From an uncultured bacterium (lineage in GTDB: Bacteria > Caldisericota > JANLFM01), in contig CAYXFH010000012.1 in NCBI GenBank assembly GCA_964464245.1, forward strand, positions 1-14,689: a stretch of 14,689 nt of DNA, read 5' to 3'. Shown one piece after another: positions 2,308 to 14,630 of the stretch. The position numbers were made by a program, and so were the translations under genes. The notes below the pieces were generated by a model. That model was not told the DNA's origin. It did no database searches and worked only from the letters and a program-made list of their open reading frames with translations. How positions within the stretch are numbered: position 1 is the stretch's first letter; every line of letters starts with the position of its first letter.

Positions 2308-2565
2308 TTAGAGCAAGCGGCGATAGCTGAAGAGACGCACCATCCAGAAGAAAAGGAAAGCGCCCCCTCCAGCGGCGAGAAGGACGGCCCAATGCGTGGC
2401 TCTCCAGTGGCCCAGGGTGGTTGCCAGGTAGGCGGCGATCAGCGCTCCGGTGACGCTGAGGATCAGCGTCTCCATGAACTGCAAGCCGCGGCGGATGGGA
2501 AAGAGGAAATGACAGAAGACCGTCACCCCAAACCCGACCAGCGCCCACCAGAGCCAGTTGCTCAT
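2308..2565 (-). CDS. GlsB/YeaQ/YmgE-family (transglycosylase-associated) small stress membrane protein, 85 aa
   Basis: Hydrophobic helices with a Gly-rich pattern (LILSVTGALIAAYLATTLG, VLLAAGGGAFLFFWMV) typical of PF04226. The start lies 7 nt downstream of the pmbA stop, suggesting an operon. Confidence 0.65.
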   Translation of the reverse strand: MSNWLWWALVGFGVTVFCHFLFPIRRGLQFMETLILSVTGALIAAYLATTLGHWRATHWAVLLAAGGGAFLFFWMVRLFSYRRLL

Positions 2566-2572
2566 CCCGGCC

Positions 2573-3913
2573 TCAGTAGGTCGTCTGTCCGTTGAAGGTG
2601 AAAGCCCTCACCTTGAGGGCAGGGACCAGGTTCCCGCCGAAGAAACCGGCCTGCAGCTTCCGCTCGAAGCCGATCAGTTGGGCTTCCTTCAGGGCGCCTA
2701 GGATGGATGAGGTGAAGCGCAAGTTGCAGAGGGGCGCGGTGATCCGGCCGTGATCGATCTTGAAGGTGCCGTCGCGGGTCATCCCGGTGATCAGGGTCAG
2801 TTTTGGGTGAACCGGCCGGACGTACCAGAGGCGAGTTACCAGTACGCCGTCCTCGGTGTCGGCGATCATCTCCTCGATCGTAGCGTTCCCAGGGGCCATC
2901 ACCATGTTCAAGGGCAAGGGTCCAAATCCGTTCGGCTGGGGCAAGGCATGCCCGGTGGAACGCTTCCCCTCCAGATTGGCGGTGAAGGAATCATAGACGA
3001 CGCCCATAGCCACGCCGTTCTCGATGAGGGCGACTTTTTCCTTGGGCTGCCCCTCGAAGTCAAAAGGAACGATCCAGCCTTCCGGGTGCAACCCGTCATC
3101 CCAAATGGAGATGTTCTCCGCCGCCACCGGTTGACCCATGGAGTCGCTCATGAAGGAGCGCTTCTCCTGATAGGACAAGGCGCCCAGCCCCATGTAGCCG
3201 AGGTAATCCAGCATCTCAGCCACAGCGTAGGGCAAGAAGACCGCTTCCATCTCCTTCACTTCGGTAAGCTGGGGATCCTGGGCGCTGAGGGCGCGCTCCA
3301 GCGCTTCCTCGGCCACTGCCTCCACGTCGATCGCAGCAACTGATGTGCCGTGGCGGTCGGCGTACCCGGCCGAGGTCGGGGAGAGAAGGACGGTAGAGAG
3401 GGAGGCGCGGGTGGCTTCGGTGTAGGCTTCCACCCCCAGGGAGTTAACCACGCCCAGTTTGTAGACGCTGGTGGAGAAAGCGCCCGAGGCTTTCACCGGA
3501 TGACCCTTCAGCTTGGCCACCAGCTTGGCCACTCCCTCGGCTCGCTCCTCCGGGGAATAGCGGGCGGTGCGCCCTACGAAAGCGCCGGCCGGGGCGGGAA
3601 GGATCGCTTGCGGGCCGGGCAAGCTCTTGAACTCGCTGTTCTTCGGGGAAAGGCGAGCGATTTCGGCAGCCAACCGCACTGTCTTGACTACCTCTTCCGG
3701 GTCCAAGCGGTTGGTGGAGGCGATGCCGATGCGTTGATCTACTACCAGGCGAACGGTCAGGGTGGCATCCTCCTGGCTGGTGTTCTGGTGGATGATGGAG
3801 TTGGCGAAACGCGTTAGTTGTTCGTCCTGAACAGTCAGCACGGCTTCCGCCTGGTCGGCCTGGCTGGCGGCCAGGGCTTGCTTAAGGATAGAGAGGATCT
3901 CGTCGCGCTTCAT
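2573..3913 (-). CDS. pmbA: PmbA/TldE-family metalloprotease partner subunit, 446 aa
   Basis: Length and sequence are typical of the TldE/PmbA family, which lacks HExxxH. It is paired with tldD directly upstream, and its ATG (3913-3911) overlaps the tldD TGA (3912-3910) as ATGA. Confidence 0.82.
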   Translation of the reverse strand: MKRDEILSILKQALAASQADQAEAVLTVQDEQLTRFANSIIHQNTSQEDATLTVRLVVDQRIGIASTNRLDPEEVVKTVRLAAEIARLSPKNSEFKSLPGPQAILPAPAGAFVGRTARYSPEERAEGVAKLVAKLKGHPVKASGAFSTSVYKLGVVNSLGVEAYTEATRASLSTVLLSPTSAGYADRHGTSVAAIDVEAVAEEALERALSAQDPQLTEVKEMEAVFLPYAVAEMLDYLGYMGLGALSYQEKRSFMSDSMGQPVAAENISIWDDGLHPEGWIVPFDFEGQPKEKVALIENGVAMGVVYDSFTANLEGKRSTGHALPQPNGFGPLPLNMVMAPGNATIEEMIADTEDGVLVTRLWYVRPVHPKLTLITGMTRDGTFKIDHGRITAPLCNLRFTSSILGALKEAQLIGFERKLQAGFFGGNLVPALKVRAFTFNGQTTY

Positions 3914-5370
3914 TTCTTCACTCCTACCTGCACATTGCGGAAACGGGCCGGGGACGCCCCGTGCCCCACGTGCATGCTCTGGGGTGGCTGTCCTTTGCCG
4001 CAGTTGGTAAGACCCCAGAGGAACCAGGAATTCTCGTCGGCGACGGCATCGCAGGAGTTCCAGAACTGAGGCGTCATCCCGGTGTAGGTGGCGTTCTTAA
4101 CAGGCGCTCCCAGCTTGCCTCCCTCGATCTCGTAGGCGATCTCTGTGCCGAACTGGAAGTTCAGGCGTTTGTCGTCGATCGACCAGCTCTTGTTGGTGAT
4201 CAGGTAGAGGCCGTGCTCGGTGTCGGCGATCAGTTCCTCGAAGGGTATCGTCCCAGGCCGGATGCTGATGTTGGTCATGCGGATGATCGGCATCCGCCCC
4301 CAGCCGTCGGCTCGCATCGCCGCCGAGTTCTTCAGCCCCAGCGCAGCGGCTGTCTCGCGGCTGGTCAGGTAACCAATGAAGAGCCCTTCTTTGACCAAAT
4401 CCACCGACTGGGCGGGAAATCCCTCATCATCATAGGCGAAGGTCCCCAGGCCGCCGGGGATGGTGGCGTCGGCATAGATGGTGACATGCTTGGAGCCGTA
4501 CTGCAGCTTGCCTAGAAGGTCCGGCATCATGAAGCTTGTGCCGGCGAAGGAGGCCTCGGTTCCCAAGACCCGATCCAGCTCGGTTGGGTGTCCGCAGGAT
4601 TCATGGATCTGCAAGCCTAACTGACTGGAATCGAGGATGATATCGATCTCGCCGGAGGGACAAGGCTTGGCGGTCAAGAGCGAGACGGCTTCCTGCCCGA
4701 TGCGCTCGGCATTCTCCAGCAAGCCCAAAGTGGCGATGAACTCGTATCCCAAGGCCCGCACGTTCCCCCCCATCGAGTTGGGGAAAGAGCGGATCTGCAT
4801 GTCGTTCTCGCCCACAGCGTAGGCTTCCAGGCCGCCGCCGGACTCCACCTTGTGCTGTTCGATGAACGACCCTTCCGAGGAGGCGAAGATCTTCCGCTCC
4901 TTCCAGAAGTCCAGGCTGGCGCGGGAGATGGTCACCCCCGGCACAGCCCGCACCTTGTCGTCGACTTGGGTCAGGAACTGGATCTTCTCCTCCAGTGGAA
5001 CATGGAAGGGGTCGATCCGGCAGTCAGCGGGGAGATAGGCCTCCACTGCCAGTAGAGGTTCCAGGACCACGTCGCGCTCTTTGACGCGGGCTGATGCTTC
5101 GGCGATGCGCACAGCCAAAGCGGTGATCTCTTCCACCTTCCGGCCGGTGAGCGTGCGGGAGCTAGCGAAACCCCAGGCGCCGTTCTTCAGGACGCGCACC
5201 CCAAAACCTGCATCCAAGCCGTTGGCGATCGACTCCACATTCCCCAACTTCAAGGCCAGACTCTGCTGTTCGCGTCGGATGATGCGGATGTCGGCATAGG
5301 CACAGCTTAACTTCTTGGCTGTGCTCAGGCACAATTCAGTGAACTCGCGCAAATGATACTCCTTTCGCAT
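3910..5370 (-). CDS. tldD: TldD-family zinc metalloprotease, 486 aa
   Basis: Contains the IHESCGHPTELD (HExxxH-like) metal site. The C-terminal segment ...TNCGKGQPPQSMHVGHGASPARFRNVQVG resembles the E. coli TldD C-terminus. It has a 4-nt overlap with pmbA. Confidence 0.86.
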   Translation of the reverse strand: MRKEYHLREFTELCLSTAKKLSCAYADIRIIRREQQSLALKLGNVESIANGLDAGFGVRVLKNGAWGFASSRTLTGRKVEEITALAVRIAEASARVKERDVVLEPLLAVEAYLPADCRIDPFHVPLEEKIQFLTQVDDKVRAVPGVTISRASLDFWKERKIFASSEGSFIEQHKVESGGGLEAYAVGENDMQIRSFPNSMGGNVRALGYEFIATLGLLENAERIGQEAVSLLTAKPCPSGEIDIILDSSQLGLQIHESCGHPTELDRVLGTEASFAGTSFMMPDLLGKLQYGSKHVTIYADATIPGGLGTFAYDDEGFPAQSVDLVKEGLFIGYLTSRETAAALGLKNSAAMRADGWGRMPIIRMTNISIRPGTIPFEELIADTEHGLYLITNKSWSIDDKRLNFQFGTEIAYEIEGGKLGAPVKNATYTGMTPQFWNSCDAVADENSWFLWGLTNCGKGQPPQSMHVGHGASPARFRNVQVGVKK

Positions 5371-5438
5371 GGGGGGAACAGATTTGACCTCCGGTCTATC
5401 CGGAAATCTGTCCCCATACTATTAAAATCTGTCCCGAT
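5369..5438. repeat. Degenerate copy 2 of the palindromic element: ATGGGG(gga)ACAGATTTGA - 18-nt GC-rich loop (CCTCCGGTCTATCCGG) - GAAATCTGTCCCCAT, plus an extra half-site AAATCTGTCCCGAT at 5425-5438
   Basis: Read directly. It overlaps and abuts the tldD start codon (5370-5368) and lies downstream of the small-TM/DUF2207 genes. Confidence 0.7.
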
Positions 5439-5451
5439 ACTGTCTGTTGGC

Positions 5452-5718
5452 TTAGGGCTTCGTCTCGGGGTCTCCTCCCCTCTTTCCCTCCGCGCGTGCG
5501 GGGGCAAAATCGGCATCAAGCTGCGCCGCTTGGCGCAGTTCCTCCTCCTCACGGCGCGCCTCGCGTCGAAGAAGAAGGCCGGCTATAAGCAGCGCGACAG
5601 CCGGGATAGCCAGCGGCCACCAGGCGCCCGGCCAGGCGAGGAGATAGCCGAGGGCTATCAATAGGAACAACAGGGCGGAGAGAAGAACAGTTAGGGAAGC
5701 CCAGCGGCTAACCCGCAC
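5452..5718 (-). CDS. Hypothetical small membrane protein (~88 aa): two predicted TM helices followed by a charged Arg/Glu-rich tail; possible GTG start overlapping the DUF2207 stop
   Basis: Supported portion of ORF 5452..5991: VRVSRWASLTVLLSALLFLLIALGYLLAWPGAWWPLAIPAVALLIAGLLLRREARREEEELRQAAQLDADFAPARAEGKRGGDPETKP. The upstream part of that ORF is an alternate frame of the DUF2207 C-terminus and is not counted. GTG at 5718-5716 is preceded by GGAGGAGGGGG, which comes from the poly-Gly codons of the upstream gene. Confidence 0.35.
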   Translation of the reverse strand: MRVSRWASLTVLLSALLFLLIALGYLLAWPGAWWPLAIPAVALLIAGLLLRREARREEEELRQAAQLDADFAPARAEGKRGGDPETKP

Positions 5719-7516
5719 CGCTGCCCCCTCCTCCTCCCCCGCCGCCGCCTCCTCCGGAGAAACCGCCCCCTCCTCCGCCCGAGGAGCTGGATCTTTCCGC
5801 TGTGAATGCCGTGCTGACGCGGGCGCCGAAATCGTTGAAGGAGTTCTGCAGCGCTTGTCCGAATTGGCTGCTTCCGCCCATCGCGGAGCTGCCGTAGGCG
5901 CCGGCGTAAGCCCACACCCACCAGGAGGGTGCGTAGAAGTCTGGCCGCGCGGCGAAGGAGGCCACCCAGCCCTTCTCGATGCCGAAGACAATGGCGTAGG
6001 GCAAGTATTCCGAGAAGATCGTGCTGGAATCGCGCAAGGCCGGCCGCTTTTCCAGCTCCAGCATGTACTGCATGAAGGCCTTCCAGGCGGACAGCTCGCG
6101 CGCGCCGGTATAGCTGCGACGCGGCATCGCTGAGCCGAAACCTAGGACAAAGAAGGAAGCGAAGATCAACCCGATGCCCAGGATAAAGACCTGGAAGAAG
6201 AAGAGAGCGATCCCGCCAAAAAGCATCAGCGTGCCGATCCCGCTATAGGTGGCTCGGACTCTGCCGGGATCGGCATCGAAGAAGCGGTAGGGAGCCAGGT
6301 AGGCCCAGATCTCCTTCTGGAAACTGCTCACGTAGGCGGAGAGGGCATGCGCCATGGCGGAGAGAGTGGTGGTCTGCACGTGGGCGCCGAAGAGCAGGTT
6401 GAAGAGGAAACTCTCGTAGGGCTGTAGATCCTGGTCCTCTTTCAGCTTGGTCAGGCGAAAGTCCGCTCCCTCTTGCTCCATCTTCAGGTACCCCTTATGA
6501 GCCAAGTCGAAGATCGTCGCCTGGATCCCTTTCTGGGTGGAAGCTTGGCGCCAGAGCGCATCCACCCCGGCCGGGCGTAATGCGGTGGGGGGGCCGGAGA
6601 TCATCGCCGTGGAGGGCGGCATGCGCAGCTCGCGCCCCTTGGTCCACCACTGATAGATCATCCAGATGGGAACCAGCGAGGCAATGGCGATCGCTAAAAT
6701 GTACTGCGCATCCAACCAGAAGCGGCGCCACCATGCGGCGTTGTCCTGGGCCTTCTGTTCTTGCTGCACTTGGGGGAGAATGGATTGGCTGGAGCGGCTC
6801 ATGCCGGAGGGAAGGGAGACCAACCCTTGCGGGAAGAGCAGGCGCGCCTCCAGCCCCACCCCCTCGTCGAGGGTGGATTCCAGTTGGATGGTCGCGCCGT
6901 CAACGATGGTCACCTTACCGCTTCCCGGGGCCGGACCGTACGCCCAAACCAGCAATTGCTCCTTCGTAGCGCCGGCGGGCAAATGGATGGCGACCCGCGC
7001 CTGCTCCATGGGTTTCTCGTGGTCGGCCCCGATGAACTTGAAATAGAGCTGGTCGTAGTCCTGCCAGAAGCTGATCGCGCCGCGCCGCGCGGCGCCCACC
7101 AAGCGGTAGCCGATCACCCAACTGTGGGTGGAGTTGGTGTAATCGAAATTCCAGCGGATGGTCACGCGGGAACCCTCGTCGGTGACGCTGTAAACGCCTG
7201 GAGCAGTGCCGGCGTCACGACGGTAGACAGTCCCGCTCGGCTCGCGCACGCTGACCTGGTCCACACCTTCGATCTGGTCCTTGACGATGTAGAGGTAGGC
7301 GAAATGGTAATTCCCCTCGAAGCGCAGGCTCCGCGTCTCTTCTACCAAGAGGTTCCCGTCCGCTTGCACTTGAACCTGGAGGGAAACATCAGTCCAGATG
7401 TAGTCCTTGGCTTGGACGCCAGTGGGCAGGATGAACAGGAGGCACGACGACATCACTGCAAGGAGGAGCGATAGCAAAGCCAGGCGCCTCAAGCGACCGC
7501 GGGTTATTCTTCTCAT
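5708..7516 (-). CDS. DUF2207-family predicted membrane protein (signal peptide, extracytoplasmic N-domain, central TM helices, Gly-rich C-terminal tail), 602 aa
   Basis: N-terminal signal peptide (MRRITRGRLRRLALLSLLLAVMSSCLLF). TM segments lie around residues 270-290 and 420-470. The C-terminal SSSSGGGGGGFSGGGGGGGGGGGSGAG tail is characteristic of DUF2207 proteins. Start ATG 7516-7514 is preceded by AAGGAG. Confidence 0.75.
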   Translation of the reverse strand: MRRITRGRLRRLALLSLLLAVMSSCLLFILPTGVQAKDYIWTDVSLQVQVQADGNLLVEETRSLRFEGNYHFAYLYIVKDQIEGVDQVSVREPSGTVYRRDAGTAPGVYSVTDEGSRVTIRWNFDYTNSTHSWVIGYRLVGAARRGAISFWQDYDQLYFKFIGADHEKPMEQARVAIHLPAGATKEQLLVWAYGPAPGSGKVTIVDGATIQLESTLDEGVGLEARLLFPQGLVSLPSGMSRSSQSILPQVQQEQKAQDNAAWWRRFWLDAQYILAIAIASLVPIWMIYQWWTKGRELRMPPSTAMISGPPTALRPAGVDALWRQASTQKGIQATIFDLAHKGYLKMEQEGADFRLTKLKEDQDLQPYESFLFNLLFGAHVQTTTLSAMAHALSAYVSSFQKEIWAYLAPYRFFDADPGRVRATYSGIGTLMLFGGIALFFFQVFILGIGLIFASFFVLGFGSAMPRRSYTGARELSAWKAFMQYMLELEKRPALRDSSTIFSEYLPYAIVFGIEKGWVASFAARPDFYAPSWWVWAYAGAYGSSAMGGSSQFGQALQNSFNDFGARVSTAFTAERSSSSGGGGGGFSGGGGGGGGGGGSGAG

Positions 7517-7576
7517 CTTCGCTCCTTTCCCAGCGGGATCTCTCCCATTATACTCAGAACGCCCTGCCGGGGGCTA
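7517..7576 (-). promoter_or_regulatory. Candidate promoter/operator of the DUF2207 gene: SD AAGGAG, -10 TATAAT, and the 19-mer TAGCCCCCGGCAGGGCGTT over the -35 position
   Basis: Minus strand reads ...TAGCCCCCGGCAGGGCGTTCTGAGTATAATGGGAGAGATCCCGCTGGGAAAGGAGCGAAGATG. TATAAT is the reverse complement of 7547-7552 and AAGGAG the reverse complement of 7522-7527. The 19-mer (7558-7576) recurs exactly at 11663-11681. Confidence 0.4.
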
Positions 7577-7600
7577 TTATGTTGCCGGGGGCTATCATTG

Positions 7601-7660
7601 TTTAGTGGTTTAGTAGCCAAGTGGTCAAGTGGTCAAGTGGTCAAGTGGTCAAGTAAAAAA
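7601..7660. repeat. Tandem 8-mer repeat (GTGGTCAA x4 perfect at 7621-7652, with degenerate units either side: tttagtgg/tttagtag/ccaagtgg/.../tcaagtaa)
   Basis: Read directly. The 8-bp periodicity suggests a slippage-prone microsatellite. The reverse complement gives four overlapping TTGACC motifs. Confidence 0.85.
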
Positions 7661-7771
7661 ACAAATCTTGATCTTACTCATACTCAACTGCTTTATTACT
7701 CACTTTGAATCACCTATTTACTCAGTTGCTTAACTACTTAATTACTTGATTACTTGATTACTTAACTGCTC
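7661..7771. other. AT-rich island (~30% GC in a ~63% GC context) with AGTAA/TACTCA and GATTACTT x3 short repeats; non-coding
   Basis: Stop codons occur in all frames. It is flanked by 20-nt direct repeats ATGTTGCCGGGGGCTATCAT at 7579-7598 and 7772-7791. Confidence 0.8.
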
Positions 7772-7777
7772 ATGTTG

Positions 7778-7855
7778 CCGGGGGCTATCATGGCGCCGCG
7801 GGGTATGATGCTACCGGGGGCTATCATGGCGCCGCGGGTTATCATGGCGCCGCGC
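7778..7855. repeat. GC-rich direct repeats CCGGGGGCTATCATGGCGCCGCGGG (x2, 7778-7802 and 7814-7838) plus a partial third copy TATCATGGCGCCGCG; they encode the last ~14 aa of the upstream ORF
   Basis: Read directly. CCGGGGGCTAT occurs 4 times between 7567 and 7824 and once more at 11672. Confidence 0.8.
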
Positions 7856-8842
7856 CAGCGCTCGCCACAATTCCTCCCGGCCATCGAAGACCTGCTTCTG
7901 CTCCACGCCGCCTTTGACAAAGATCAGAGTGCGCTCGGGGTGGAAAGAACCGATCCGGGTGAGGGGCAGGCCGCGTTGAGCGAAGGGCTCTTCCAACAGT
8001 CCAAGCGGCGCAGCGATCAGCATCGCTCCGGAGGAGATCAAAGCCAGCGGGTCCAACTCCAAAGCGCGACAGAGAAGGGCGGTCTCCAGGCGAATGGGAA
8101 GCGATTCTTCTTCCACACGCAGCCCGCAGGCGGAGGCCTCCATCATCTCCCAGGCTCCGCCCAGCAGCCCCCCCTCAGTCGCGTCGTGCATGGCATGAGC
8201 GCCCAGGGAAGCGGCCAGCAACCCCTCGGGGACCACCGAGATCTCCTCCAGGAAAGTCGCGGCATGAGCCAAGAGCTCCTCGCCCAGGACGGGGCGCAGC
8301 TCTTCCGCCAGCTCGCGGGCGAGGATCGCCGTCCCCTCCAAAGCAAGCGCTTTGCTGAGGTAGAGGGAGTCCCCCAACTGGGCGCCGCCGGTTCGGATCA
8401 GGCGACCGCGAGGTGTTTTGCCCACCGCCGTCGCCACCACCACCAGTTGCGGCAAATATGGCGTGACTTCGCTGTGACCGCCGAGGATGGCCACTCCCAA
8501 AGAACGAGCGGCGCGATCGGCATCGGACATCATCATCGCCAGCTCTTCGGCAGCCACGTGGGGAGGAATCAGCCAGGTCAAGAGCAGGCCGACCGGCTCG
8601 GCGCCTGCGGCGGCCAGGTCATTGCAGGCGATGTGGACGGCCAACCAGCCAATCTCCTGGCCGGCGCCGGTAATGGGATCGGTGGAGAGAACCAACAAGG
8701 AGTCGCCCCCCAGGTCGAGGACGGCAGCGTCCTCCCCCAGCGCTGCGCCAACCAGCGCCTCCGGCCGTGGCGATCCCAAGTAGGGGAAGACCAAGCGGGT
8801 CAATTCCTGGGAGGAGAGCTTGCCGGGGGAGAGCTTAGGCAT
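7811..8842 (-). CDS. AIR-synthase-related protein (PurM superfamily; HypE/ThiL-like), ~343 aa
   Basis: The N-domain motif ...GEDAAVLDLGGDSLLVLSTDPITGAGQEIGWLAVHIACNDLAAAGAEP... matches the PurM-like N-domain. The C-domain ...GGHSEVTP...ALISSGAMLIAAP... matches the PurM-like C-domain. It lacks the HypE N-terminal HGSGG motif and the C-terminal Cys, and lacks the SelD CxC/U motif. The ATG at 8842-8840 (MPKLSPGK...) is preferred over the TTG at 8869. Confidence 0.55.
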   Translation of the reverse strand: MPKLSPGKLSSQELTRLVFPYLGSPRPEALVGAALGEDAAVLDLGGDSLLVLSTDPITGAGQEIGWLAVHIACNDLAAAGAEPVGLLLTWLIPPHVAAEELAMMMSDADRAARSLGVAILGGHSEVTPYLPQLVVVATAVGKTPRGRLIRTGGAQLGDSLYLSKALALEGTAILARELAEELRPVLGEELLAHAATFLEEISVVPEGLLAASLGAHAMHDATEGGLLGGAWEMMEASACGLRVEEESLPIRLETALLCRALELDPLALISSGAMLIAAPLGLLEEPFAQRGLPLTRIGSFHPERTLIFVKGGVEQKQVFDGREELWRALARRHDNPRRHDSPR

Positions 8843-8865
8843 ACCCGTCTCTTCCCCGCAAGTCA

Positions 8866-8901
8866 GCAACCCTCGACTCTTCGCTTCCGCTCGAGGGTTG
8901 C
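8866..8901 (-). other. Strong hairpin (11-bp stem GCAACCCTCGA/TCGAGGGTTGC, 14-nt loop) in the 119-nt spacer between the flotillin-like gene and the PurM-like gene
   Basis: Read directly. No U-tract follows on the minus-strand RNA, so this is more likely a processing/stability or attenuator structure than an intrinsic terminator. Confidence 0.35.
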
Positions 8902-8961: not shown

Positions 8962-11028
8962 CTACTTTCCGGAGGGGGGCATCGGGTAGATGGTTGCCTC
9001 AGCCACGGGTGAGGAATTGGCGGGTGAGGAGCCAACGGGCAGCGACTCCAAAACGGGAGTGTTCGACCCACGCTGGGCGCTTCCGGCATTCCCGAGCCAG
9101 CGCATCAGCGTCCCAGCCAAGCCATCCAACGAGCCGGAGCCGTTGCTGCCGGAGACCAGCACTTCGGGTACGAACTTCACCCCGCGGTCGGCCAAAGCCG
9201 TGATGGCGTTTACCATTGCCGTCGGCTCCTGCCCAAGCGCGCGGACCTGGGCCTCGTATGCTTTGGCTCGCGCCATCCCGATCGCCTCTACTTCGGCCCC
9301 CTTGGCGGCGCCGGTCTCCCGGATGTAGGTGGCTTCGCCGTCAGCCTCGGCCTTGCGGGCGGTGGCGTTGTTGCTCTTGATCTCCACGTTAACGCGGGAC
9401 TCGGCCAGCTTGGTCTGCATGTCGGCCGTCCCCCGAGCCTGCTCGGTGGCGATGCGCTGATCCTGAGCCTCTCGCTGCTTCTGGTAGGTCTGAATCTCCT
9501 GGTTGGCGATCTCCCGTTCGGTCAGAACCTTCACCAGGCTCTCCGGCAGGATGACGTCCTGGATGTAGACGCCACGGGTCTCCACCTGGTACTGAGCGAG
9601 ATGGGAGGCGATGTGCATGAAGGCTTCCTCCTGCACCTTCTGCCGCGTCTCGATGAAGCTGATGGCCGGCATGGACTGCAGTTTGTCGCGGAAGTGGTTG
9701 CCTACCGCCGCCTGCAGGACCTCGTTGACCAGGTTGGCCATGGTCCCCACCATCGAGATGACGCGGGGGGCCTTCGTGTCCGGAACGTGGATCTGCACCT
9801 GCAAATCGATGCGGAAGATGAACCCCTCGCGCGACTTGGCCACGATCTGAGAGAGCTGGCGGTCCAGGTTGTGCGCTTGCGAGGTGGCATCGGCCCAGTT
9901 CAGGGTGAGGATCGAGGTGGGCACGACTTCGGCTTGGTAGCAACGCGGGTTGACCGAGTATTTTCCGGTGCGGATCGGCTCCTGCCAAATGCCGCGGTGG
10001 CCGGAGCGCACTAGTGTGCCGAACTTGAACTCCTCGCCGGAGGTGTCCTTGGCGCCCAGCCCGACATAGGCTTTGATCACCGCCACTTGACCCTGCTCCA
10101 CCACCAGCATCGGCACCATTTCCACCGAGACCAGGAAAGGGTTCAACGCGTAGGCGCCGTAAAGCAGGGGGTCATGCTGCAAGCCGATGCGGCCGCCGTT
10201 GTCGAGGAAGGCTTGGAAGTCCTGGTAGTTGTTGTGCAGATCGTTCTTACTCCCCAGGAGATGGTCAATCAGTTCACTATCTGAGGCGCCCTCATGCTCC
10301 AGCTTCTCCAGATCGGTGAATCCACCCAGACGGCTGGCGATGTCGCCGGCGGGAAGCGGATCTCCCTCGTAAACGGTGACAATCCCCACCATATCGTTGA
10401 CCTCTCCCTCGCGGCTGCGCGGGAGGGGCTCGATGCGCACCAGCGAGAGCTGGTCGGGACGAAGGCCGTAGGCCTCCGGCGTCAGCCGGCCGCTTCCGGC
10501 GCTCCCGGACTTGGTCATCCAGGCGCGCAACTCCGAGGCAATCGGCTCGCCGTAGACCTGGCGACGGGTAATCACCATAAAGCCCACCGGGTGGATCGGC
10601 ACCAGCGTGCCGGGGGGAAGGACCGGGCGCTGTACGCCCTTCTGCCCCCCCAGAGCGATGAACTTGCGCAGGTCGGAGAAGTTGGCGAACTCCGGTTTGA
10701 AGACGGCCGACTTGGCGCCGATCGGCAGCGGCGCCCCGACCTGGGCCACTACCACACCGATCTCCCCGGCCGGCACTTGCACCCAGGGGAACTTGTCGAC
10801 GCGGTAAGGCATCCAGAATTTCCAGCGCCAGCCAGGCATCAACAGGTCGGCTTGGTAGCCGGCTTCCCCCTGGAAGGCAATAGGGTTGTCCTGGTGCAGC
10901 TTGCCGAAGGAGAAACGCTTCGTCACCAGACCGACCTGGGTCGGCCCGATGATCCTGATTGAAGGGAGGAAGAGAATCAAGAAGAGCAAGATGCCCCCCA
11001 GTATGTAGATCAGTGTCCACGGAACCAT
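8962..11028 (-). CDS. Flotillin-like SPFH/band-7 protein (YqiK/FloT-like), 688 aa: N-terminal TM anchor, SPFH domain, long Ala/Glu-rich coiled coil, Ser/Gly/Pro-rich tail
   Basis: TM segment WTLIYILGGILLFLILFL is followed by IIGPTQVGLV..., the start of the SPFH domain. The coiled-coil segment QKQREAQDQRIATEQARGTADMQTKLAESRVNVEIK...AKAYEAQVRALG is typical of flotillin EA repeats. The ATG at 11028 has a perfect SD TAAGGAGG 7 nt upstream. Confidence 0.72.
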   Translation of the reverse strand: MVPWTLIYILGGILLFLILFLPSIRIIGPTQVGLVTKRFSFGKLHQDNPIAFQGEAGYQADLLMPGWRWKFWMPYRVDKFPWVQVPAGEIGVVVAQVGAPLPIGAKSAVFKPEFANFSDLRKFIALGGQKGVQRPVLPPGTLVPIHPVGFMVITRRQVYGEPIASELRAWMTKSGSAGSGRLTPEAYGLRPDQLSLVRIEPLPRSREGEVNDMVGIVTVYEGDPLPAGDIASRLGGFTDLEKLEHEGASDSELIDHLLGSKNDLHNNYQDFQAFLDNGGRIGLQHDPLLYGAYALNPFLVSVEMVPMLVVEQGQVAVIKAYVGLGAKDTSGEEFKFGTLVRSGHRGIWQEPIRTGKYSVNPRCYQAEVVPTSILTLNWADATSQAHNLDRQLSQIVAKSREGFIFRIDLQVQIHVPDTKAPRVISMVGTMANLVNEVLQAAVGNHFRDKLQSMPAISFIETRQKVQEEAFMHIASHLAQYQVETRGVYIQDVILPESLVKVLTEREIANQEIQTYQKQREAQDQRIATEQARGTADMQTKLAESRVNVEIKSNNATARKAEADGEATYIRETGAAKGAEVEAIGMARAKAYEAQVRALGQEPTAMVNAITALADRGVKFVPEVLVSGSNGSGSLDGLAGTLMRWLGNAGSAQRGSNTPVLESLPVGSSPANSSPVAEATIYPMPPSGK

Positions 11029-11130
11029 CGCAGTGCCTCCTTACTCGGCGGTGCGAACCCCAGTGGGTTCCCCACCTGTCCTTTGATTATAGGGCCTTTC
11101 CGGCCGAATGGCGCAGTCTCCGAAAAATAG

Positions 11131-11175
11131 ATCAGCTAATGGGGACAGATTTGAATTCTGTCCCCATTAGCTGAT
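11131..11175. repeat. Copy 3 of the palindromic element: 18-bp arms ATCAGCTAATGGGGACAG / CTGTCCCCATTAGCTGAT with a 9-nt loop ATTTGAATT
   Basis: Read directly. The element supplies the last 12 codons (LMGTEFKSVPIS) and the stop of the Nif3-like C-terminal ORF. Confidence 0.8.
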
Positions 11176-11608
11176 TCAAGGCGCTGAGGCTGTCCACCTG
11201 CAGGCCGCGGCGACGCAACTCGTTCAGGTAGGGGTTGATCCCGACCATATCTGAGGCAAGGTGGCCGCTGATCACCAGGTTCTTCCCCGGATGGGCTGCC
11301 GCCAGTTTCTCTGCTTCTCCTCCATCGATGTGAATGTAGATGACGGTCTGATAACCGGCGCGGTAGAGGACATCCGCTGCGCCAAAGCCGCCATTGGTTC
11401 CCGCTCCGTGGAAAACAGCGACGCGCCCGGCCGGAGCGCTCTCCTCTCCCAGGATAGCAACCGGGGGAAGGGGAGCAGCGGCAATCTCCGGGAACTCGCC
11501 CAAGGCCGACAAAACCTCTGCTACTGTCCAACCAGGGTGGGCTCGCTCCTCCAGTTTACCTTGCATCAGGCGCCGGCCCAGCTCGTCGAGTGGGTTGTGT
11601 ACATTCAA
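11132..11608 (-). CDS. Nif3/DUF34-family protein, C-terminal half (frame 2 of a split gene); TTG start in the track, but the frame is open upstream to ~11847
   Basis: RVAVFHGAGTNGGFGAADVLYRAGYQTVIYIHIDGGEAEKLAAAHPGKNLVISGHLASD...LNEL matches the Nif3 C-terminal half (compare E. coli YbgI RVAWCTGGGQSF...AAGHHATERGG...LSEWL). Confidence 0.5.
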   Translation of the reverse strand: MNVHNPLDELGRRLMQGKLEERAHPGWTVAEVLSALGEFPEIAAAPLPPVAILGEESAPAGRVAVFHGAGTNGGFGAADVLYRAGYQTVIYIHIDGGEAEKLAAAHPGKNLVISGHLASDMVGINPYLNELRRRGLQVDSLSALNQLMGTEFKSVPIS

Positions 11609-11982
11609 GAAGGGTTGGCGCAGTCGCTCGGCCAGCCGAAGAGGATCCTCCCAGTTGGCCTTAACGCCCTGCCGGGGGCTAGAGCGTTCAGGAAGGCGCT
11701 TCGCCGCAGACGGGCAGTGGCGCGCTCGGCCTCCTCCTTGGGCGCCCCCAGTTCTTCCAGAAGAGAGCTCTGCCGTTCCAGCACGCGGTAGAAAGTAGCT
11801 ATAGCCAGACCGCGCGGGTGGTGGCCAAGAACGCAGTCATAGGCGTGGTCTTTGGCATAGAGAAGCTCGGCGGCGGAGACATCAAGGGCGAAGAGGATCC
11901 GCTGGAGGCGCCTCCCGGGAACATGGACGGCTGAATCCGAAGGGACCTCCTTCATTCCGGCCATATCGAGGGCGATCTGCAT
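11605..11982 (-). CDS. Nif3/DUF34-family protein, N-terminal half (frame 1 of a split gene); likely disrupted or frameshifted
   Basis: VHVPGRRLQRILFALDVSAAELLYAKDHAYDCVLGHHP matches the Nif3 N-terminal fold and the HHP metal motif. The expected second motif (aaHTNlD) is absent in all three frames. The TGA stop overlaps the TTG of the C-terminal half (TTGA). Confidence 0.45.
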   Translation of the reverse strand: MQIALDMAGMKEVPSDSAVHVPGRRLQRILFALDVSAAELLYAKDHAYDCVLGHHPRGLAIATFYRVLERQSSLLEELGAPKEEAERATARLRRSAFLNALAPGRALRPTGRILFGWPSDCANPS

Positions 11983-12036: not shown

Positions 12037-14403
12037 TCAGGCGCAGCGCGAATAGCCGCAGGTGCGACAGATCAGGCAGCCTTCGATGTACTCCAGGACG
12101 TTGCCGCATTCAGGACAGACGCCGCCCATAGTGCGGGCGGCAAGGATAGGGAGAGAGACTGGCGACGGAGGAGAAAGGGCATCTCCTGCAACTGGTGGAC
12201 TGTCTTTCTCCGGGGAGGTGGATTGGACGCCCTCCTGAGGCGCGAAGAGGCCCCCTTGGTGTGTGCCGTATGGTCCGGCGTAACCGGCGCCCCACATCTT
12301 CCGCCCCATCGCCAGCGCCACCCCCTGGGCGATGGAGCGCACCGGCACGCGCGTCCCGTCGCTGGAGAAGTCGTTCACCGCTTCGCGGGATTCACAACGC
12401 CAAAGCTGCTCGATCACTTCCTGCGAATCCACTCCGGCGCGCAGGGCCAGCGAGATCAGGCGGGAGAGACCGTCCGCTTCTTGGTCGCGCGACTCCACGA
12501 AAACCTCGCAGATCCCCTCCTCGTCGGCGTTGACCGTCACGTAGATACGACCGCGGGGCGTCTCCACCCGCTCAGTGGAACCGGCAGTGACCTTCGGCCG
12601 ACGGCGCGCCACCTTGTGCCGGCTAGCGGCCAGCTCGTCCCAAGTCTTTCCCTCCTCACTGGTGGGAATGTTCAGGACCTGCTCATTGCGGCTCTTGTCG
12701 CGGTAGATGGTGACCCCCTTGCAACCCTCGCGGTAAGCCAACAGGAATACCTTCCGCACCTCCTCCTCGCCGGCCTCCTGGGGAAAGTTCACCGTCTTGC
12801 TGACAGCGTTCTGGGTGTGACGCTGGAAAGCGGCTTGCATGCGCAGGTGATACTCCGGGCTGATATCGTAGGCAATGCGGAAAGCCTGGCGGACCTCTGG
12901 GGGAATCTCCTCAATTCCCTGCAGAGTGCCCTGATGAGCGATGCGATCCATCAGCGCCTCGCTGTAGAAGCCACGCTGGCGAGCGATCCCCTCGAAATAG
13001 GGGTTCACCTCCAGCATGCGCGTGTTGTCCATGACGTTGCGCAGATAGATCAAAGCAAAGTGCGGCTCCACCCCGGAGGAACAGCCGGCCAGGATGGAGA
13101 GGGTGCCGGTGGGGGCGATGGTGGTGGTGGTGGCGTTGCGAAGCTTTGGCCCCTCTGCGGCGTAGACCGAGCGGGGGAAGTTGGGGAAGGCGCCGCGCAG
13201 ATCCGCCAGGGCGATGGAGGCGGCTGTCGCTTCCGCTTGGATAAAGGACATCACCCGTTCAGCCAGAGCCAAGGCTTGGGGTGAGTCGTAGGGTACTCCT
13301 AACTGCACTAGCAAGTCGGCCCAGCCCATCAGCCCCAGGCCGATCTTGCGGTTGCCGCGCACCATCTCCTCGATCTCGTGCAAGGGGTAGGCGCTGCGAT
13401 CGATGACGTTATCCAGGAAGTGAACGGCCAGGTGGGCGGTCCGAGCCAACTTCGGCCAATCGATCGCTTCCTCCGGCTGTGGCGCCGGATAGGGCCGGGA
13501 ACCCGGCTGCAGCATGCGGGCCAAATTGAGCGATCCCAGGTTGCACGCCTCGTAGGGAAGCAGCGGCGTTTCACCACAGGGATTGGTGCTCTCGATGGAG
13601 CCCAGGGAAGGGGTGGGGTTGTCGCGGTTGATGCGGTCGATGAAGATCACCCCCGGCTCGCCCGAGCGCCAGGCGTTATGAACGATCCGGTCGAAGACCT
13701 GGCGAGCCGGCAAAGTGCGAGTGACCTCGCCGGTGCGGGGGTTGACCAGGTCGTAGTCGCGGCCCTCTTCCATCCGCTGCATGAAATCCTCGGTTAGCGC
13801 CACTGAAATGTTAAAGTTGTTGAACTCGCTCAGATCGTTCTTGCAATCAATGAATTCCTCGATATCGGGATGGGTCGCCCGCAGGATTCCCATGTTGGCG
13901 CCGCGCCGCGTCCCCCCTTGCTTTATAACCTCAGTAGCCATGTTGAAGACACGCATGAAGGAGACCGGGCCTGAGGCGACCCCGCCGGTGCTCTTGACGA
14001 CGTCGCTCTTTGGCCGCAGATGGGAGAAGGAGAAACCCGTGCCGCCGCCTGACTGCTGGATCAGAGCGGTGTTCTTGACCGATTCAAAGATGGACTCCAA
14101 GTCATCCTCCACCGGCAGGACGAAACAGGCAGCCAGTTGTTGCAACTCTCGTCCCGCATTCATTAGGGTGGGCGAGTTGGGCAGGAACTCCAGCGAGGCC
14201 ATCAGGTTGTAGAAACGGTCGGCCAGCTCCTCCAGATTGGCCTGCGGATCGTAGGCCGCCTCGGCGGAGGCGATGTCGGCTGCAACTCGGGCAAGCATCT
14301 CCTCCGGCTTCTCGATCGGCTTGCCTTCCGCATCCTTCTTCAGGTATCGTTTGTTCAGCACAGTCTTGGCGTTCTCGGTCAGTTGCAGCGGAATCCTCTC
14401 CAT
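12037..14403 (-). CDS. nrdJ: Class II adenosylcobalamin-dependent ribonucleotide reductase NrdJ (~788 aa) with C-terminal Cys4 zinc ribbon
   Basis: Conserved class II RNR blocks: ...LMNAGRELQQLAACFVLPVEDDLESIF..., NPCGETPLLPYEACNLGSLNL, SKTVNFP. The C-terminus has CPECGNVLEYIEGCLICRTCGYSRCA (CxxC-x10-CxxC) after a Pro/Ser-rich linker. Start is taken at ATG 14403 (MERIPLQL...) with SD AGAGAGGA 6 nt upstream; the track's TTG at 14424 is less likely. Confidence 0.9.
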   Translation of the reverse strand: MERIPLQLTENAKTVLNKRYLKKDAEGKPIEKPEEMLARVAADIASAEAAYDPQANLEELADRFYNLMASLEFLPNSPTLMNAGRELQQLAACFVLPVEDDLESIFESVKNTALIQQSGGGTGFSFSHLRPKSDVVKSTGGVASGPVSFMRVFNMATEVIKQGGTRRGANMGILRATHPDIEEFIDCKNDLSEFNNFNISVALTEDFMQRMEEGRDYDLVNPRTGEVTRTLPARQVFDRIVHNAWRSGEPGVIFIDRINRDNPTPSLGSIESTNPCGETPLLPYEACNLGSLNLARMLQPGSRPYPAPQPEEAIDWPKLARTAHLAVHFLDNVIDRSAYPLHEIEEMVRGNRKIGLGLMGWADLLVQLGVPYDSPQALALAERVMSFIQAEATAASIALADLRGAFPNFPRSVYAAEGPKLRNATTTTIAPTGTLSILAGCSSGVEPHFALIYLRNVMDNTRMLEVNPYFEGIARQRGFYSEALMDRIAHQGTLQGIEEIPPEVRQAFRIAYDISPEYHLRMQAAFQRHTQNAVSKTVNFPQEAGEEEVRKVFLLAYREGCKGVTIYRDKSRNEQVLNIPTSEEGKTWDELAASRHKVARRRPKVTAGSTERVETPRGRIYVTVNADEEGICEVFVESRDQEADGLSRLISLALRAGVDSQEVIEQLWRCESREAVNDFSSDGTRVPVRSIAQGVALAMGRKMWGAGYAGPYGTHQGGLFAPQEGVQSTSPEKDSPPVAGDALSPPSPVSLPILAARTMGGVCPECGNVLEYIEGCLICRTCGYSRCA

Positions 14404-14543
14404 TTCGGTCCTCTCTACAATCAATGGTGGATGAGATCAATTATCTATACAACCAATGGTAGCATATCCTCTTATCGCAAGCCACCAGGGTGGACCCTGG
14501 ACCGGCTTTCCAAAGATGGCGGGATCGGTTAAAATGTGCGCGT

Positions 14544-14630
14544 GCCGAAGTGGCGGAATTGGCAGACGCGCTACGTTCAGGGCGTAGTTGGAGAACTCCA
14601 GTGGGGGTTCGACTCCCCCCTTCGGCACCA
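14544..14630 (+). tRNA. tRNA-Leu (anticodon CAG), type II tRNA with long variable arm; CCA encoded
   Basis: Cloverleaf read by hand. Acceptor GCCGAAG/CTTCGGC; D-stem GCG/CGC; anticodon stem CTACG/CGTAG with loop TTCAGGG (anticodon CAG); variable arm TTGGAGAACTCCAGT; T-stem GGGGG/CCCCC with loop TTCGACT; discriminator A then CCA (14628-14630). Confidence 0.85.

Follow-up and report, generated by a model that had tools for sequence, protein, structure and literature searches.

The repeat-dense region described here is the junction between two minus-strand genes of a Coprothermobacterota genome, one AIR-synthase-related (AIRS) and the other coding for a DUF2207 protein. The window, by which we mean the entire stretch of 14,689 nucleotides that was analysed, contains genes assigned by Pfam to DnaK, DnaJ, TldD/PmbA, DUF2207, AIRS, Band_7 and ribonucleotide reductase, and the chromosomal gene order at the locus is kept among the relatives whose orthologous loci were compared. 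The AIRS product scores under every cut-off of the NCBIfam hypE, thiL and selD models. In exact-protein look-ups, the PmbA product of the window could be matched to a record, its DUF2207 and AIRS products could not. The features of the junction, with the lines of evidence for them, are the following:

5708..7516, minus strand: DUF2207 membrane-protein gene, downstream of the repeats (Pfam DUF2207 and DUF2207_C, orthologues)
7514..7530, minus strand: ribosome-binding site GGAAAGGAG (7530-7522) and DUF2207 ATG (7516-7514)
7547..7552, minus strand: -10-like hexamer TATAAT, within GTATAATGGG, 5′ of DUF2207 (cross-relative conservation)
7560..7568, minus strand: minisatellite tail GGCAGGGCG (invariant in the family)
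7569..7598, minus strand: downstream 18-bp block (in-register copies, unit parsing)
7599..7771, no strand assigned: AT-rich foldback, 173 bp, 34% GC, within one 18-bp unit (presence/absence, folds, profile)
7600..7654, minus strand: 3′ arm (gene strand), inverted counterpart of the 5′ arm (TRF, inverted-repeat search)
7655..7717, minus strand: spacer between the arms, degenerate octamers and a T7 run (7661-7655, gene strand)
7718..7768, minus strand: 5′ arm (gene strand), octamer array (TRF period 8, 6 copies; inverted-repeat arm)
7772..7851, minus strand: upstream 18-bp block (TRF, in-register copies, unit parsing, comparison with L001, L002 and L004)
7811..8869, minus strand: AIR-synthase-related (PurM-superfamily) gene (Pfam AIRS and AIRS_C)

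The TATAAT hexamer at 7552-7547 is the same in the window and in the relatives L030, L001, L002 and L004, and reads TACAAT in L031. It is a putative -10 of DUF2207, for which no convincing -35 partner was seen. Could the repeats themselves be an expanded promoter or UP element of DUF2207, as the original prediction offered among other readings? The -10 is also present in relatives that lack the AT-rich island, and the end of the island lies about 46 bp upstream, which argues against it. The TTGACC boxes proposed as -35 elements have no -10 at a distance of 16-18 bp. A promoter-like TAAACA-17-CATAAT (7604-7576), the sole site that uses island sequence, was discarded, as its -10 is lost in L030.

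The 18-bp minisatellite

The GC-rich repeats, which flank the island on both sides, constitute a single tandem array of the unit GGCRNCATNATAGCCCCC (TRF period 18 and 36). Six 18-bp units are in register in the window, head to tail and with no spacers. The upstream block comprises four full units (7851-7780) and the 8 starting bases GGCAACAT (7779-7772) of the unit that is interrupted by the foldback; the rest of this unit (ATGATAGCCCCC), followed by one full unit GGCAACATAATAGCCCCC, makes up the downstream block. A 36-bp duplication, equal to two units of the upstream block, is common to the window and L030.

The direct repeats of the original prediction were all recovered, and they greatly exceed what chance would give. 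On the plus strand, CCGGGGGCTAT occurs four times (7567, 7585, 7778 and 7814; shuffle mean 0.01, with 0 of 200 shuffles reaching 4), and ATGTTGCCGGGGGCTATCAT is exact at 7579-7598 and 7772-7791, with the 173 bp of 7599-7771 in between. Two 25-mers, one beginning at 7787 and the other 36 bp further on, at 7823, lie within the last codons (..ALARRHDNPRRHDSPR*) of the ORF 7811-8869(-). A third copy of ATGTTGCCGGGGGCTATCAT, with 2 mismatches and located at 7808-7827, was absent from the original list.

The tail GGCAG(G/C)G closes every one of the 16 complete arrays that were recovered, as GGCAGGG in 14 of them and as GGCAGCG in 2. Array starts are partial units, and no common leader was seen. The length of the unit is a multiple of three, and it is open in five of the six reading frames. 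In the AIRS protein, the last 13 codons (RRHDNPRRHDSPR) and the TAG stop (7813-7811) are supplied by the array, and distant AIRS orthologues, with the C-termini ..ELWRGLARRKR* and ..ELWRILKESRD*, are without the repeat. This length and the five open frames are the reason why such a repeat-coded protein tail is tolerated.

The 18-bp array is a member of a minisatellite family that is dispersed at many loci of this Coprothermobacterota lineage. A genome scan with the 18-mer pattern yielded 7 contigs of the MAG JAPLHV, 1 of JAPLHW and 2 of ELA551. In about 50 kb of JAPLHV DNA, parsing recognised 11 arrays, which range from 1 to 11 units and have the same tail throughout; 4 of these arrays had not been selected for. 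At the AIRS-DUF2207 locus, the unit number is six in the window and L030, four in L001 and L002, two in L004 and zero in L031 and L032; L001 has an additional 18-mer array within a small ORF, which the window and L002 are without. The pattern had 0 matches in viral contigs. Matches in Hyphomonadaceae were set aside as chance or unrelated, as they consist of a lone unit-like stretch in a conserved gene.

In a fuller form, the tail of the minisatellite reads GGCAGGGYG. The only terminator-like hit in the region is a 5-bp stem within the 18-mer tail, and it was rejected, since the number of such hits is within chance expectation.

The AT-rich foldback and its relatives

The GC content of the island is 34% over 7599-7771 and 28% over 7653-7766, as against 62% for the window. 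As originally noted, this tract is unique: elsewhere in the window, the lowest-GC stretch of 110 bp has 44%, and no stretch of 80 bp falls below 38% GC. The sole repeated sequence at the two foldback junctions is of 4 bp, TCAT on the plus strand or ATGA on the gene strand. At one end of the island lies the perfect tandem array that had been reported, GTGGTCAA x4 at 7621-7652, delimited by TRF to 7618-7654 (period 8, 4.6 copies, 100% match) and degenerate from there to 7604; on the gene strand, this 3′ arm is composed of ACTTGACC x4, then ACTTGGCT, ACTAAACC and ACTAAACA. A second octamer array, of the TTACTTAA type, occupies the opposite end (7718-7765, TRF). Here the units of the 5′ arm are AAGTAATC x2, then AAGTAATT, AAGTAGTT, AAGCAACT and similar ones, with the consensus YYWAGTRR; the 5′ arm of L001 has one more AAGTAATC and an additional AGATAGTT unit.

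The two arrays are mutually inverted, with arms of 25 nt (7632-7656 and 7742-7766) that are 80% complementary. These represent terminal inverted repeats as they are known from MITEs, albeit atypical ones, the arms being tandem octamers. The inverted rather than direct order of the arrays speaks against iterons next to the unwinding region of a former replicon, a further early suggestion, as do the conserved chromosomal gene order, the absence of a replication-initiator or integrase gene from the window, and the lack of significant plasmid or phage matches. Almost the entire island can be written as in-register degenerate octamers. These vary mostly at their first three positions, and the AGT(A/G)(A/G) core is constant across units, loci and phyla. 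The spacer includes TGAGTAAGATCAAGA, also present in a paralogous element at a formate-dehydrogenase-like locus. Each of the six reading frames of the island contains 3-9 stop codons, and the hairpin folds of foldbacks have z-scores of -2.0 to -5.9.

Is the island a constant part of this junction? It is carried by the window, L030 and L001, whereas in L002/L003 and L004/L005 the 18-bp array runs through this position without interruption. The length polymorphism that the original prediction had envisaged is found at two levels: the segment is present or absent among orthologues rather than identical in all of them, and ACTTGACC occurs four times in the window, three times in L001 and once in L030. 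Despite this variation, a contingency locus in the usual sense is not supported: the octamer array is located 3′ of the AIRS stop and more than 46 bp upstream of the conserved -10, outside any ORF and outside any -35/-10 interval. Nucleotide identity is 92-95% among carriers and 85-88% between carriers and the two empty lineages, and the carriers form one clade. The boundaries of the island within the 18-bp unit are sharp and the same in 3/3 carriers, the empty alleles show no intermediate forms, and L001 without its insert retains exactly four 18-bp units, the same count as the empty L002. The orientation of the spacer at this locus is the same in 3/3 copies.

The flanking 20-mer pair matches at 20/20 positions in the window, at 18/20 in L030 and at 15/20 in L001. 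Its left flank in the window matches L030, its right flank L001. The window allele is a recombinant mosaic of an L030-like left and an L001-like right flank, and it is because these two were joined that the 20-mer pair of the window is exact. Between the window and L001, the island core shows 3 substitutions in 81 sites and four-fold sites show 98 in 725 (Fisher p about 0.007 on DUF2207 and PmbA sites). This slower change hints at a constraint on the island core, which a purely neutral reading would not predict; local recombination could be an alternative cause.

L018, L098 and L099 carry a paralogous foldback in the interval that separates a formate-dehydrogenase-like gene from its neighbour. 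At this second locus the 3′ arm has 8 units as opposed to about 5, and the foldback encloses an 18-mer fragment, the reverse of the nesting at the window locus. No clear target duplication was seen at L018. A more distant formate-dehydrogenase-like orthologue was considered as an empty site and proved uninformative, as the neighbouring gene is absent.

Relatives of the foldback also exist at at least six loci of gut Bacteroides, with several elements per Bacteroides contig. An nhmmer profile built from Coprothermobacterota copies only matched the Bacteroides elements over approximately the full model (E 1e-16 to 1e-10), whereas the same profile matched plain viral octamer arrays with one arm only (E 1e-7 to 1e-3). 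The heterogeneous unit run TTTAGTAGTCAAGTAGTTTAGTAGTCAAG is common to L018 and L034. At the Bacteroides GH32-MFS site, a sister Bacteroides species has 12 bp and no element, and filled and empty sites are thus on record for two loci, AIRS-DUF2207 and GH32-MFS. The 31-nt spacer of the GH32-MFS element is reversed in one contig relative to five others, with a 29/31 match to the reverse complement. Related copies sit between ordinary chromosomal genes. The element has a length of 151-185 bp, or 115-270 bp in the wider family, and a GC content of 28-39%; among near-identical strains the copy number of an arm ranges from 1 to 4, from 3 to 6 or from 5 to 8.

How far can this resemblance across phyla be taken as kinship? 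In viral contigs, a heterogeneous octamer pattern had 0 matches. Homogeneous patterns had 9-10, which we rejected as evidence of kinship because permuted octamers are equally common (8 and 10) and the profile matches one arm only. Since permuted arrays (8, 10) are about as frequent in viral contigs as the real one (10), part of the cross-phylum resemblance, which is one of low-complexity octamers, could be convergent. BLAST of the island against phages gave no match, and against plasmids two chance hits of 32-37 nt (E = 0.5). Among the loci examined, no parent element with matching ends and a transposase was seen. A 22-mer of the island core had 0 matches in the metagenome collection, and the population of the window is therefore not in that collection. 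A literature search for a YYWAGTRR foldback, by sequence and by concept, retrieved no description, which, given a limited library, does not prove novelty.

Nested elements and competing explanations

What, then, is the composition of this junction? We consider it probable that it consists of two unrelated non-coding repeat elements, one nested in the other, which both evolve by slippage and recombination. The first step is shown by the data: the 18-bp minisatellite stood at the 3′ end of AIRS before the five close relatives diverged; it replaced the original AIRS stop and now codes for the last 13 residues. A foldback of ~150-185 bp and 31-34% GC would then have entered one unit in the ancestor of the carrier clade (window, L030 and L001), between GGYARCAT and GATAGCCCCC, and brought with it two inverted YYWAGTRR arrays round a short spacer. 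The presence/absence pattern itself is observed; from it we infer a gain by parsimony, and a double loss of the island through recombination between the flanking 18-mers is a less economical, though conceivable, alternative to a single gain. The third step is again shown: unit-number drift gave rise to 2, 4 or 6 18-mers, to 1, 3 or 4 copies of ACTTGACC and to the 36-bp duplication, and recombination of the L030-like left with the L001-like right flank produced the perfect 20-mer pair.

Beyond this locus, the foldback family would insert, or be copied, between co-directional genes directly 3′ of stop codons, and there may form a long inter-gene RNA hairpin or a cruciform-prone DNA palindrome with stops in six frames. 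As to the mechanism of insertion, no transposase was found at the loci examined, and the longest junction repeat is 4 bp. The foldback may act as an RNA hairpin between two genes or as a protein-binding array. If it is active at all, it would most likely resemble REP/MITE hairpins, insulating or stabilising the upstream transcript and decoupling the two genes. A U-tract after the hairpin is absent. There is no support for the foldback as an origin, a promoter or a known RNA family, and we do not think that it serves as a promoter, an origin or a recombination site.

More tentatively, the octamer foldback may belong to an undescribed class of intergenic element common to distant phyla, here Coprothermobacterota and Bacteroides, one that abuts stop codons between co-directional genes, is mobile, has an invertible, locus-specific spacer and a periodic core read by a conserved protein or nuclease, and serves as a functional module (e.g. 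an operon insulator or switch) instead of being junk, with the 18-bp minisatellite as a second, lineage-specific partner. We regard this broader proposal as possible, with the chances against it.

An explanation that we deem unlikely is that the octamer arrays are sites for a DNA-binding protein, with a conserved core of 4-5 nt every 8 bp and the sets inverted, so that the island would be regulatory or architectural and not a passive insertion. Ribbon-helix-helix partition and operator proteins read short boxes in this manner, paired sites of a global regulator or nucleoid protein might work likewise, and both the preservation of the AGT(A/G)(A/G) core and its slower change in comparison with four-fold sites would agree with such a function. 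Similar paired inverted octanucleotides in Geobacter metallireducens have been interpreted as regulator or IHF/HU sites (PMC2700814), although that interpretation is itself a hypothesis. The copy number of the arms, however, is free to vary among near-identical strains, as would seldom be seen in a tuned operator; the elements are located after stop codons and not at promoters; and no candidate protein was found.

Could the island instead have arisen in place, by slippage of a seed octamer and inverted duplication, its likeness to other loci being the convergence of a stop-rich microsatellite? That nearly all of it consists of degenerate octamers, that copy number is quick to change, and that viral contigs contain permuted arrays as often as the real motif would fit such an origin. 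It becomes improbable in view of the sharp boundaries shared by all three carriers, of empty alleles without intermediates, and of a GC content of 28-34% in a genome of 62%. Moreover, the foldback architecture and heterogeneous unit runs are common to the second locus and to Bacteroides, and profile matches cover both arms.

The folds permit yet another interpretation, that the island encodes a structured RNA on the plus strand, antisense to the flanking genes, with a long stem that G-U pairs would keep together. The plus strand folds more stably than the gene strand in 4/4 Coprothermobacterota copies tested (-53.0 versus -42.8, -62.2 versus -55.1 and -56.9 versus -50.6 kcal/mol, with the trimmed elements in the same direction), and mismatches in the arms are G-T on the plus strand and A-C on the gene strand. 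This asymmetry, however, goes back to very few independent changes (GG versus AA in one amplified unit). It is absent from the Bacteroides relatives, whose sense and antisense fold energies are approximately equal, and for this reason was abandoned as evidence of an antisense RNA. No conserved plus-strand promoter or terminator was found, an Rfam scan of the window returned nothing in the region at E up to 1, and a scan of eight related loci returned only sub-threshold mir-1002 (33-40 bits, compared to a gathering score of 85). We hold this RNA to be very doubtful.

Of the insertion or excision scar in the original prediction, the discrete segment, present or absent among relatives, stands; the role assigned to the 20-mers does not. 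The 20-mers are two units of the 18-bp array and therefore neither an att core nor a long duplication of a target site from the site-specific insertion or excision of foreign DNA, an origin to which, for all the foreign composition of the island, its presence or absence among relatives and the exact match in the window, we give hardly any credence: the units belong to a pre-existing array, stand 2-4 in tandem at empty sites and recur at many unrelated loci, the flanks match at only 15/20 in L001 and 18/20 in L030, the L001 and L002 alleles contradict it, an allele stripped of its insert has the same number of units as the empty one and none besides, and there is neither an integrase in the window nor a phage or plasmid match.

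Annotation is affected by the 18-bp arrays: being open in 5/6 frames, they add unnoticed length to the predicted proteins of this lineage, as seen for the AIRS tail, an aldehyde-dehydrogenase N-terminus and an Asp23-like C-terminus, and the arrays also break assemblies at contig ends. The arrays would also be useful as strain-typing (VNTR) markers. A GC-rich, uncultured lineage retains a hairpin element of 28-34% GC whose nearest relatives are abundant between genes of gut Bacteroides. If this family is mobile or protein-bound, it would be a new type among the few bacterial intergenic repeat elements, and one testable in a genetically tractable host; if it is slippage-prone junk only, the finding would be an ordinary one.

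Comparison with known repeat systems

BrickBuilt, a minisatellite/MITE of Porphyromonas gingivalis with 23-nt units, is reported to be always intergenic (Klein et al. 2015, PMC4596501). Like BrickBuilt, the 18-bp layer has spacerless head-to-tail units of ~20 nt, is dispersed in one lineage, and shows a conserved terminal subunit and a variable number of units. Unlike BrickBuilt, its units are of 18 rather than 23 nt and unrelated in sequence, and it possesses only the tail GGCAGGGYG, with no recognisable leader and no inverted-repeat ends. The 18-bp arrays also extend into coding regions and lengthen ORFs, whereas BrickBuilt is reported as intergenic throughout.

The units of mycobacterial interspersed repetitive units (MIRU) measure 46-101 bp, and Rickettsia palindromic elements are single elements of 100-150 bp inserted in frame. 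The 18-bp layer resembles MIRU-VNTRs and the Rickettsia elements as a dispersed, frame-compatible repeat at gene boundaries that joins ORFs and varies in copy number; the likeness is one of behaviour only, with no relationship in sequence.

The foldback, in turn, has in common with MITEs and REP/BIMEs that it is short, non-coding, intergenic, strain-polymorphic and hairpin-capable, with inverted arms. It differs from MITEs in that its arms are 8-bp tandem arrays and its spacer is locus-specific; no parent transposase was found, nor any target duplication exceeding 4 bp. A REP is a GC-rich imperfect palindrome of 20-40 nt with a conserved GTAG head and a cognate RAYT transposase, and REP hairpins near stop codons influence the upstream mRNA and its translation. 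The foldback, an AT-rich octamer array of 115-270 bp, falls outside the REP/BIME class. The Bacteroides GH32-MFS copy is reminiscent of invertons, in that its spacer was seen in both orientations; in contrast to invertons, the foldback has no associated promoter or recombinase, and octamer arrays of 40-80 bp form its arms in place of short, defined repeats of 10-30 bp.

In Geobacter metallireducens, the 'class 1' sites number 24 pairs (Aklujkar et al. 2009, PMC2700814), in each of which two sets of tandem octanucleotides lie in inverted orientation on either side of a spacer that varies. The Geobacter sites have insertion sequences at a fixed distance, and nothing comparable was seen at the island. 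Like them, the island is multicopy and intergenic and consists of two opposite-strand sets of three to five tandem repeats of 7-9 nt, the Geobacter consensus GTTGCTYN being a GC-rich and the island consensus YYWAGTRR an AT-rich form.

Two nested repeat layers between the AIRS and DUF2207 genes

The original prediction described a cluster of repeats around an AT-rich segment at 7556-7860, and every repeat it listed is present in the window. CCGGGGGCTAT occurs four times, against 0.01 copies expected; exact copies of the 20-mer lie at 7579-7598 and 7772-7791, and one with two mismatches at 7808-7827; GTGGTCAA stands four times in tandem (TRF); and two 25-mers, spaced 36 bp apart, lie within the end of the ORF. 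The AT-rich tract at 7653-7766 has 28% GC in a 62% GC window, where the next-lowest 110-bp stretch has 44%. The genes on either side are:

5708-7516, minus strand, DUF2207 gene
7811-8869, minus strand, AIR-synthase-related (AIRS) gene

All genes near the repeats lie on the minus strand, the others being Band_7, ribonucleotide reductase and two TldD/PmbA genes. By this layout, the region spans the last AIRS codons to just short of the DUF2207 promoter and ribosome-binding site. The nearest DUF2207 homologues are found in Coprothermobacterota MAGs.

How do these repeats relate to one another? The GC-rich ones belong to a single 18-bp tandem array (gene-strand unit GGCRNCATNATAGCCCCC), with four and a half units upstream of the AT-rich island; downstream come one and a half more and then GGCAGGGCG. 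A second octamer array (7718-7765; TRF) occupies the other end of the island and is inverted relative to the first, so that the island, 7599-7771, is a foldback nested in the 18-bp array. It carries stop codons in all six frames and matches no known RNA family in Rfam.

The gene neighborhood has several further features. The ribonucleotide reductase has 795 aa in the window (12037-14424), compared to 1,160 aa in the island-free loci L002/L003 (L002 1-1615) and 1,128 aa in the distant orthologue L032 (1-1019), both with LAGLIDADG/intein domains; by these differences, its intein is present in some relatives and absent from others. Island-free L004 carries a NIF3-like gene, recognised by a faint Pfam hit, together with a 181-aa ORF upstream of AIRS (2331-3805), where the window (8962-11982), L030 and L002 carry a 688-aa Band_7 gene. 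A GC-clamped palindrome, GGGGACAGATTT...AAATCTGTCCCC, lies at window 5373-5414 (minus strand; partial copy at 5415-5435) and recurs between genes of the lineage (L002 about 10157-10200, L022 about 965-1010); its form suggests a further small hairpin repeat or a terminator family. A tRNA gene at the window edge (14544-14627, plus strand; Rfam RF00005, 51 bits) has no connection to the repeat region.

Probable gain of the island and origin of the 20-mers

Orthologous loci were retrieved through homologous proteins and exact-protein look-ups. The island occupies the same position in L030 (GCA_037130295.1) and L001 (GCA_026389455.1), and its octamer copy number varies rapidly, as anticipated: ACTTGACC has four copies in the window, three in L001 and one in L030, and L001 has one additional AAGTAATC and one extra unit in the other arm. 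The island is missing from L002/L003 and L004/L005, whose 18-bp array runs unbroken over four and two units, respectively. The more distant L031 and L032 have neither repeat, and their upstream protein ends a few residues past the conserved ELWR motif. Island carriers form one clade in DUF2207 (92–95% nucleotide identity, versus 85–88% to the empty lineages), and their PmbA genes are 95–99.6% identical, versus 89–92% to the empty lineages. On these relationships, one gain of the island is more parsimonious than two losses. Removal of the island from L001 leaves four units, the third being the stop-bearing GGTAGC one, exactly as in L002, and ATGA is the sole repeat at the island junctions.

The proposal that the 20-mers mark an insertion or excision scar thus survives in part. 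The island is present or absent among relatives and, we infer, was gained by insertion, but the 20-mers are not its signature, and an att site is not supported: they are two units of the 18-bp array, and the equivalent flanks match at only 15/20 positions in L001 and 18/20 in L030. A 36-bp (two-unit) duplication left of the island is common to the window and L030; the right flank of the window differs at 1/106 positions from L001 and 9/106 from L030. Flank mismatches, shared duplication and mixed affinities together identify the perfect 20-mer pair as a by-product of array structure and a recombination mosaic. Window and L030 diverge by at most 0.4% in AIRS, PmbA, the island core and the final 1,050 nt of DUF2207, versus 13.7% over the initial 750 nt of that gene (6767-7516). 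The mosaic region covers 6767-7516 and 7517-7600, its promoter flank matching L001 and not L030; one recombination breakpoint lies at or beside the repeats.

Could the island itself serve the DUF2207 gene as an expanded promoter or UP element? A conserved -10 exists in its absence, about 46 bp separate that -10 from the end of the island upstream, and the sole promoter-like site that depends on the island does not survive in L030, all of which argues against this reading. A former replication origin is unsupported. The foldbacks have hairpin potential with z from -2 to -5.9, and the main consequence of the island would be that the transcript between both genes forms a long hairpin, or that the DNA holds a cruciform-prone palindrome; it may act like REP or MITE hairpins, insulating or stabilising upstream messages. 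A folding advantage of the antisense strand, seen in the Coprothermobacterota copies, did not hold family-wide. Substitutions are rarer in the island core (3/81) than at four-fold sites (98/725), which hints at constraint, a comparison confounded by local recombination.

Dispersal of both repeat families

We scanned one genome per species with two consecutive 18-bp units. Matches fell on seven contigs of the L001 MAG, one of a sister MAG and two of 'bacterium ELA551', where both lie at contig ends, in keeping with repeats that break assemblies; five single-unit matches in a conserved Hyphomonadaceae gene were irrelevant to the family. In the fetched DNA, arrays comprise 1–11 units with locally amplified sub-variants, and all 16 of 16 complete arrays end in GGCAG(G/C)G. 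They sit at gene ends in either orientation, and four occur in roughly 50 kb of flanking DNA not chosen for them. Since stops fall in just one of the unit's six frames, ORFs run through the arrays. An aldehyde dehydrogenase carries SPRQH(N/D) repeats at its N-terminus in this way, and an Asp23-like protein has APGSMI repeats at its C-terminus. Read-through arrays are located at L020 7720-7845, L029 3886-3975, and L018 6217-6252 with L028 3167-3202. Such arrays therefore inflate protein predictions as well as break assemblies. In L001, the small membrane-protein ORF that follows DUF2207 contains a second array (3903-3974; four units plus tail), which lengthens it in frame by 32 codons (..SPRQHNSPRQHNSPRQHDSPRQG..) and replaces about 14 bp; this array is absent from the window (5500-5530, minus strand) and L002 (6985-7005). 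The nearest described element is BrickBuilt, a 23-nt minisatellite/MITE of Porphyromonas gingivalis (PMC4596501).

The foldback is likewise dispersed. A screen of fetched lineage DNA for AT-rich islands revealed a similar one in L018, where it separates a formate-dehydrogenase-like gene from the gene that follows; it recurs at the same locus in L098 (a 95% relative) and L099 (a 90% relative that shares its sample with island-free L004). Its 3' arm has eight versus about five units between relatives, and it is about 55–59% identical to the window island, with common runs such as TGAGTAAGATCAAGA. At its centre lies a fragment of the 18-mer family, CAGCCTGCGGCAGCATGWTAAY (L018 720-790; L098 6120-6170; L099 6105-6155). 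With an 18-mer inside a foldback here and a foldback inside an 18-mer array in the window, each element type is nested in the other. The left end of the fragment is the same as that of an array in L024, and a direct TGACTAGA repeat on both sides may represent a target duplication of 8 bp or just a pair of octamer units. 18-mer-like sequence accompanies an AT-rich periodic segment for a third time between two co-directional genes of L028 (1925-2010), where a stretch of roughly 8-bp periodicity (TAATAATT, CATAATTC and similar) is bordered by inverted 18-mer-like arms, GGCAGCATCCATAGGAAC and GTTCCATGGGTGCTGCC.

Foldbacks in Bacteroides and comparison with known elements

When metagenomes were scanned with a heterogeneous three-unit pattern, 37 contigs matched, mostly from human gut; they come from at least six loci of Bacteroides-like genomes:

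GH32-MFS
HPPK-KdsB
Dak2-DeoC
GPI-family gene
alginate lyase
BamD

Each foldback consists of (YYWAGTAG)n, a locus-specific spacer of 31–130 nt and (CTACTTRR)n, and lies between co-directional genes, its first arm usually 0–20 nt past the upstream stop. Arm lengths vary between contigs of a single locus. The GH32-MFS spacer is inverted in one contig (29/31 matches to the reverse complement, 9/31 direct), and in a sister species only 12 bp lie between these two genes. A profile built from six Coprothermobacterota copies alone matches the Bacteroides elements over both arms (E 1e-16 to 1e-10) and picks up additional copies on those contigs; from plain octamer arrays on viral contigs it draws one-arm matches only. 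Permuted octamer arrays are about as frequent in viral DNA as the real octamer, so that low-complexity convergence can account for part of the cross-phylum resemblance.

The Rfam mir-1002 precursor was also matched by Bacteroides foldbacks, on both strands, at 33–40 bits and thus below the gathering score of 85; these matches reflect a generic long AT-rich hairpin, not homology:

L038 2422-2527, both strands, sub-threshold mir-1002 match
L060 1786-1891, both strands, sub-threshold mir-1002 match
L041 341-459, both strands, sub-threshold mir-1002 match

The Bacteroides contigs L102-L105 carry, between their MFS and PfkB genes (about 5035-5190), a distinct tandem repeat with a unit of about 22 nt (..CCTAACGACNGAGGCYAYC..). 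Its copy number ranges from about one to four among contigs with identical GH32 protein, which makes it a further VNTR between genes that recalls BrickBuilt.

The region comprises two non-coding repeat elements, one nested in the other, both known in their general kinds and new in these variants. A literature search of limited coverage returned no description of the octamer foldback family, whose occurrence across phyla is the remaining lead, of moderate interest. MITEs, REP/BIME elements and Bacteroides invertons each have some features in common with the foldback and fail others. The same architecture as that of the inverted octamer arrays of the island is found in Geobacter metallireducens, which has 24 pairs of inverted tandem octanucleotide sites with variable spacers, of unknown function (PMC2700814).
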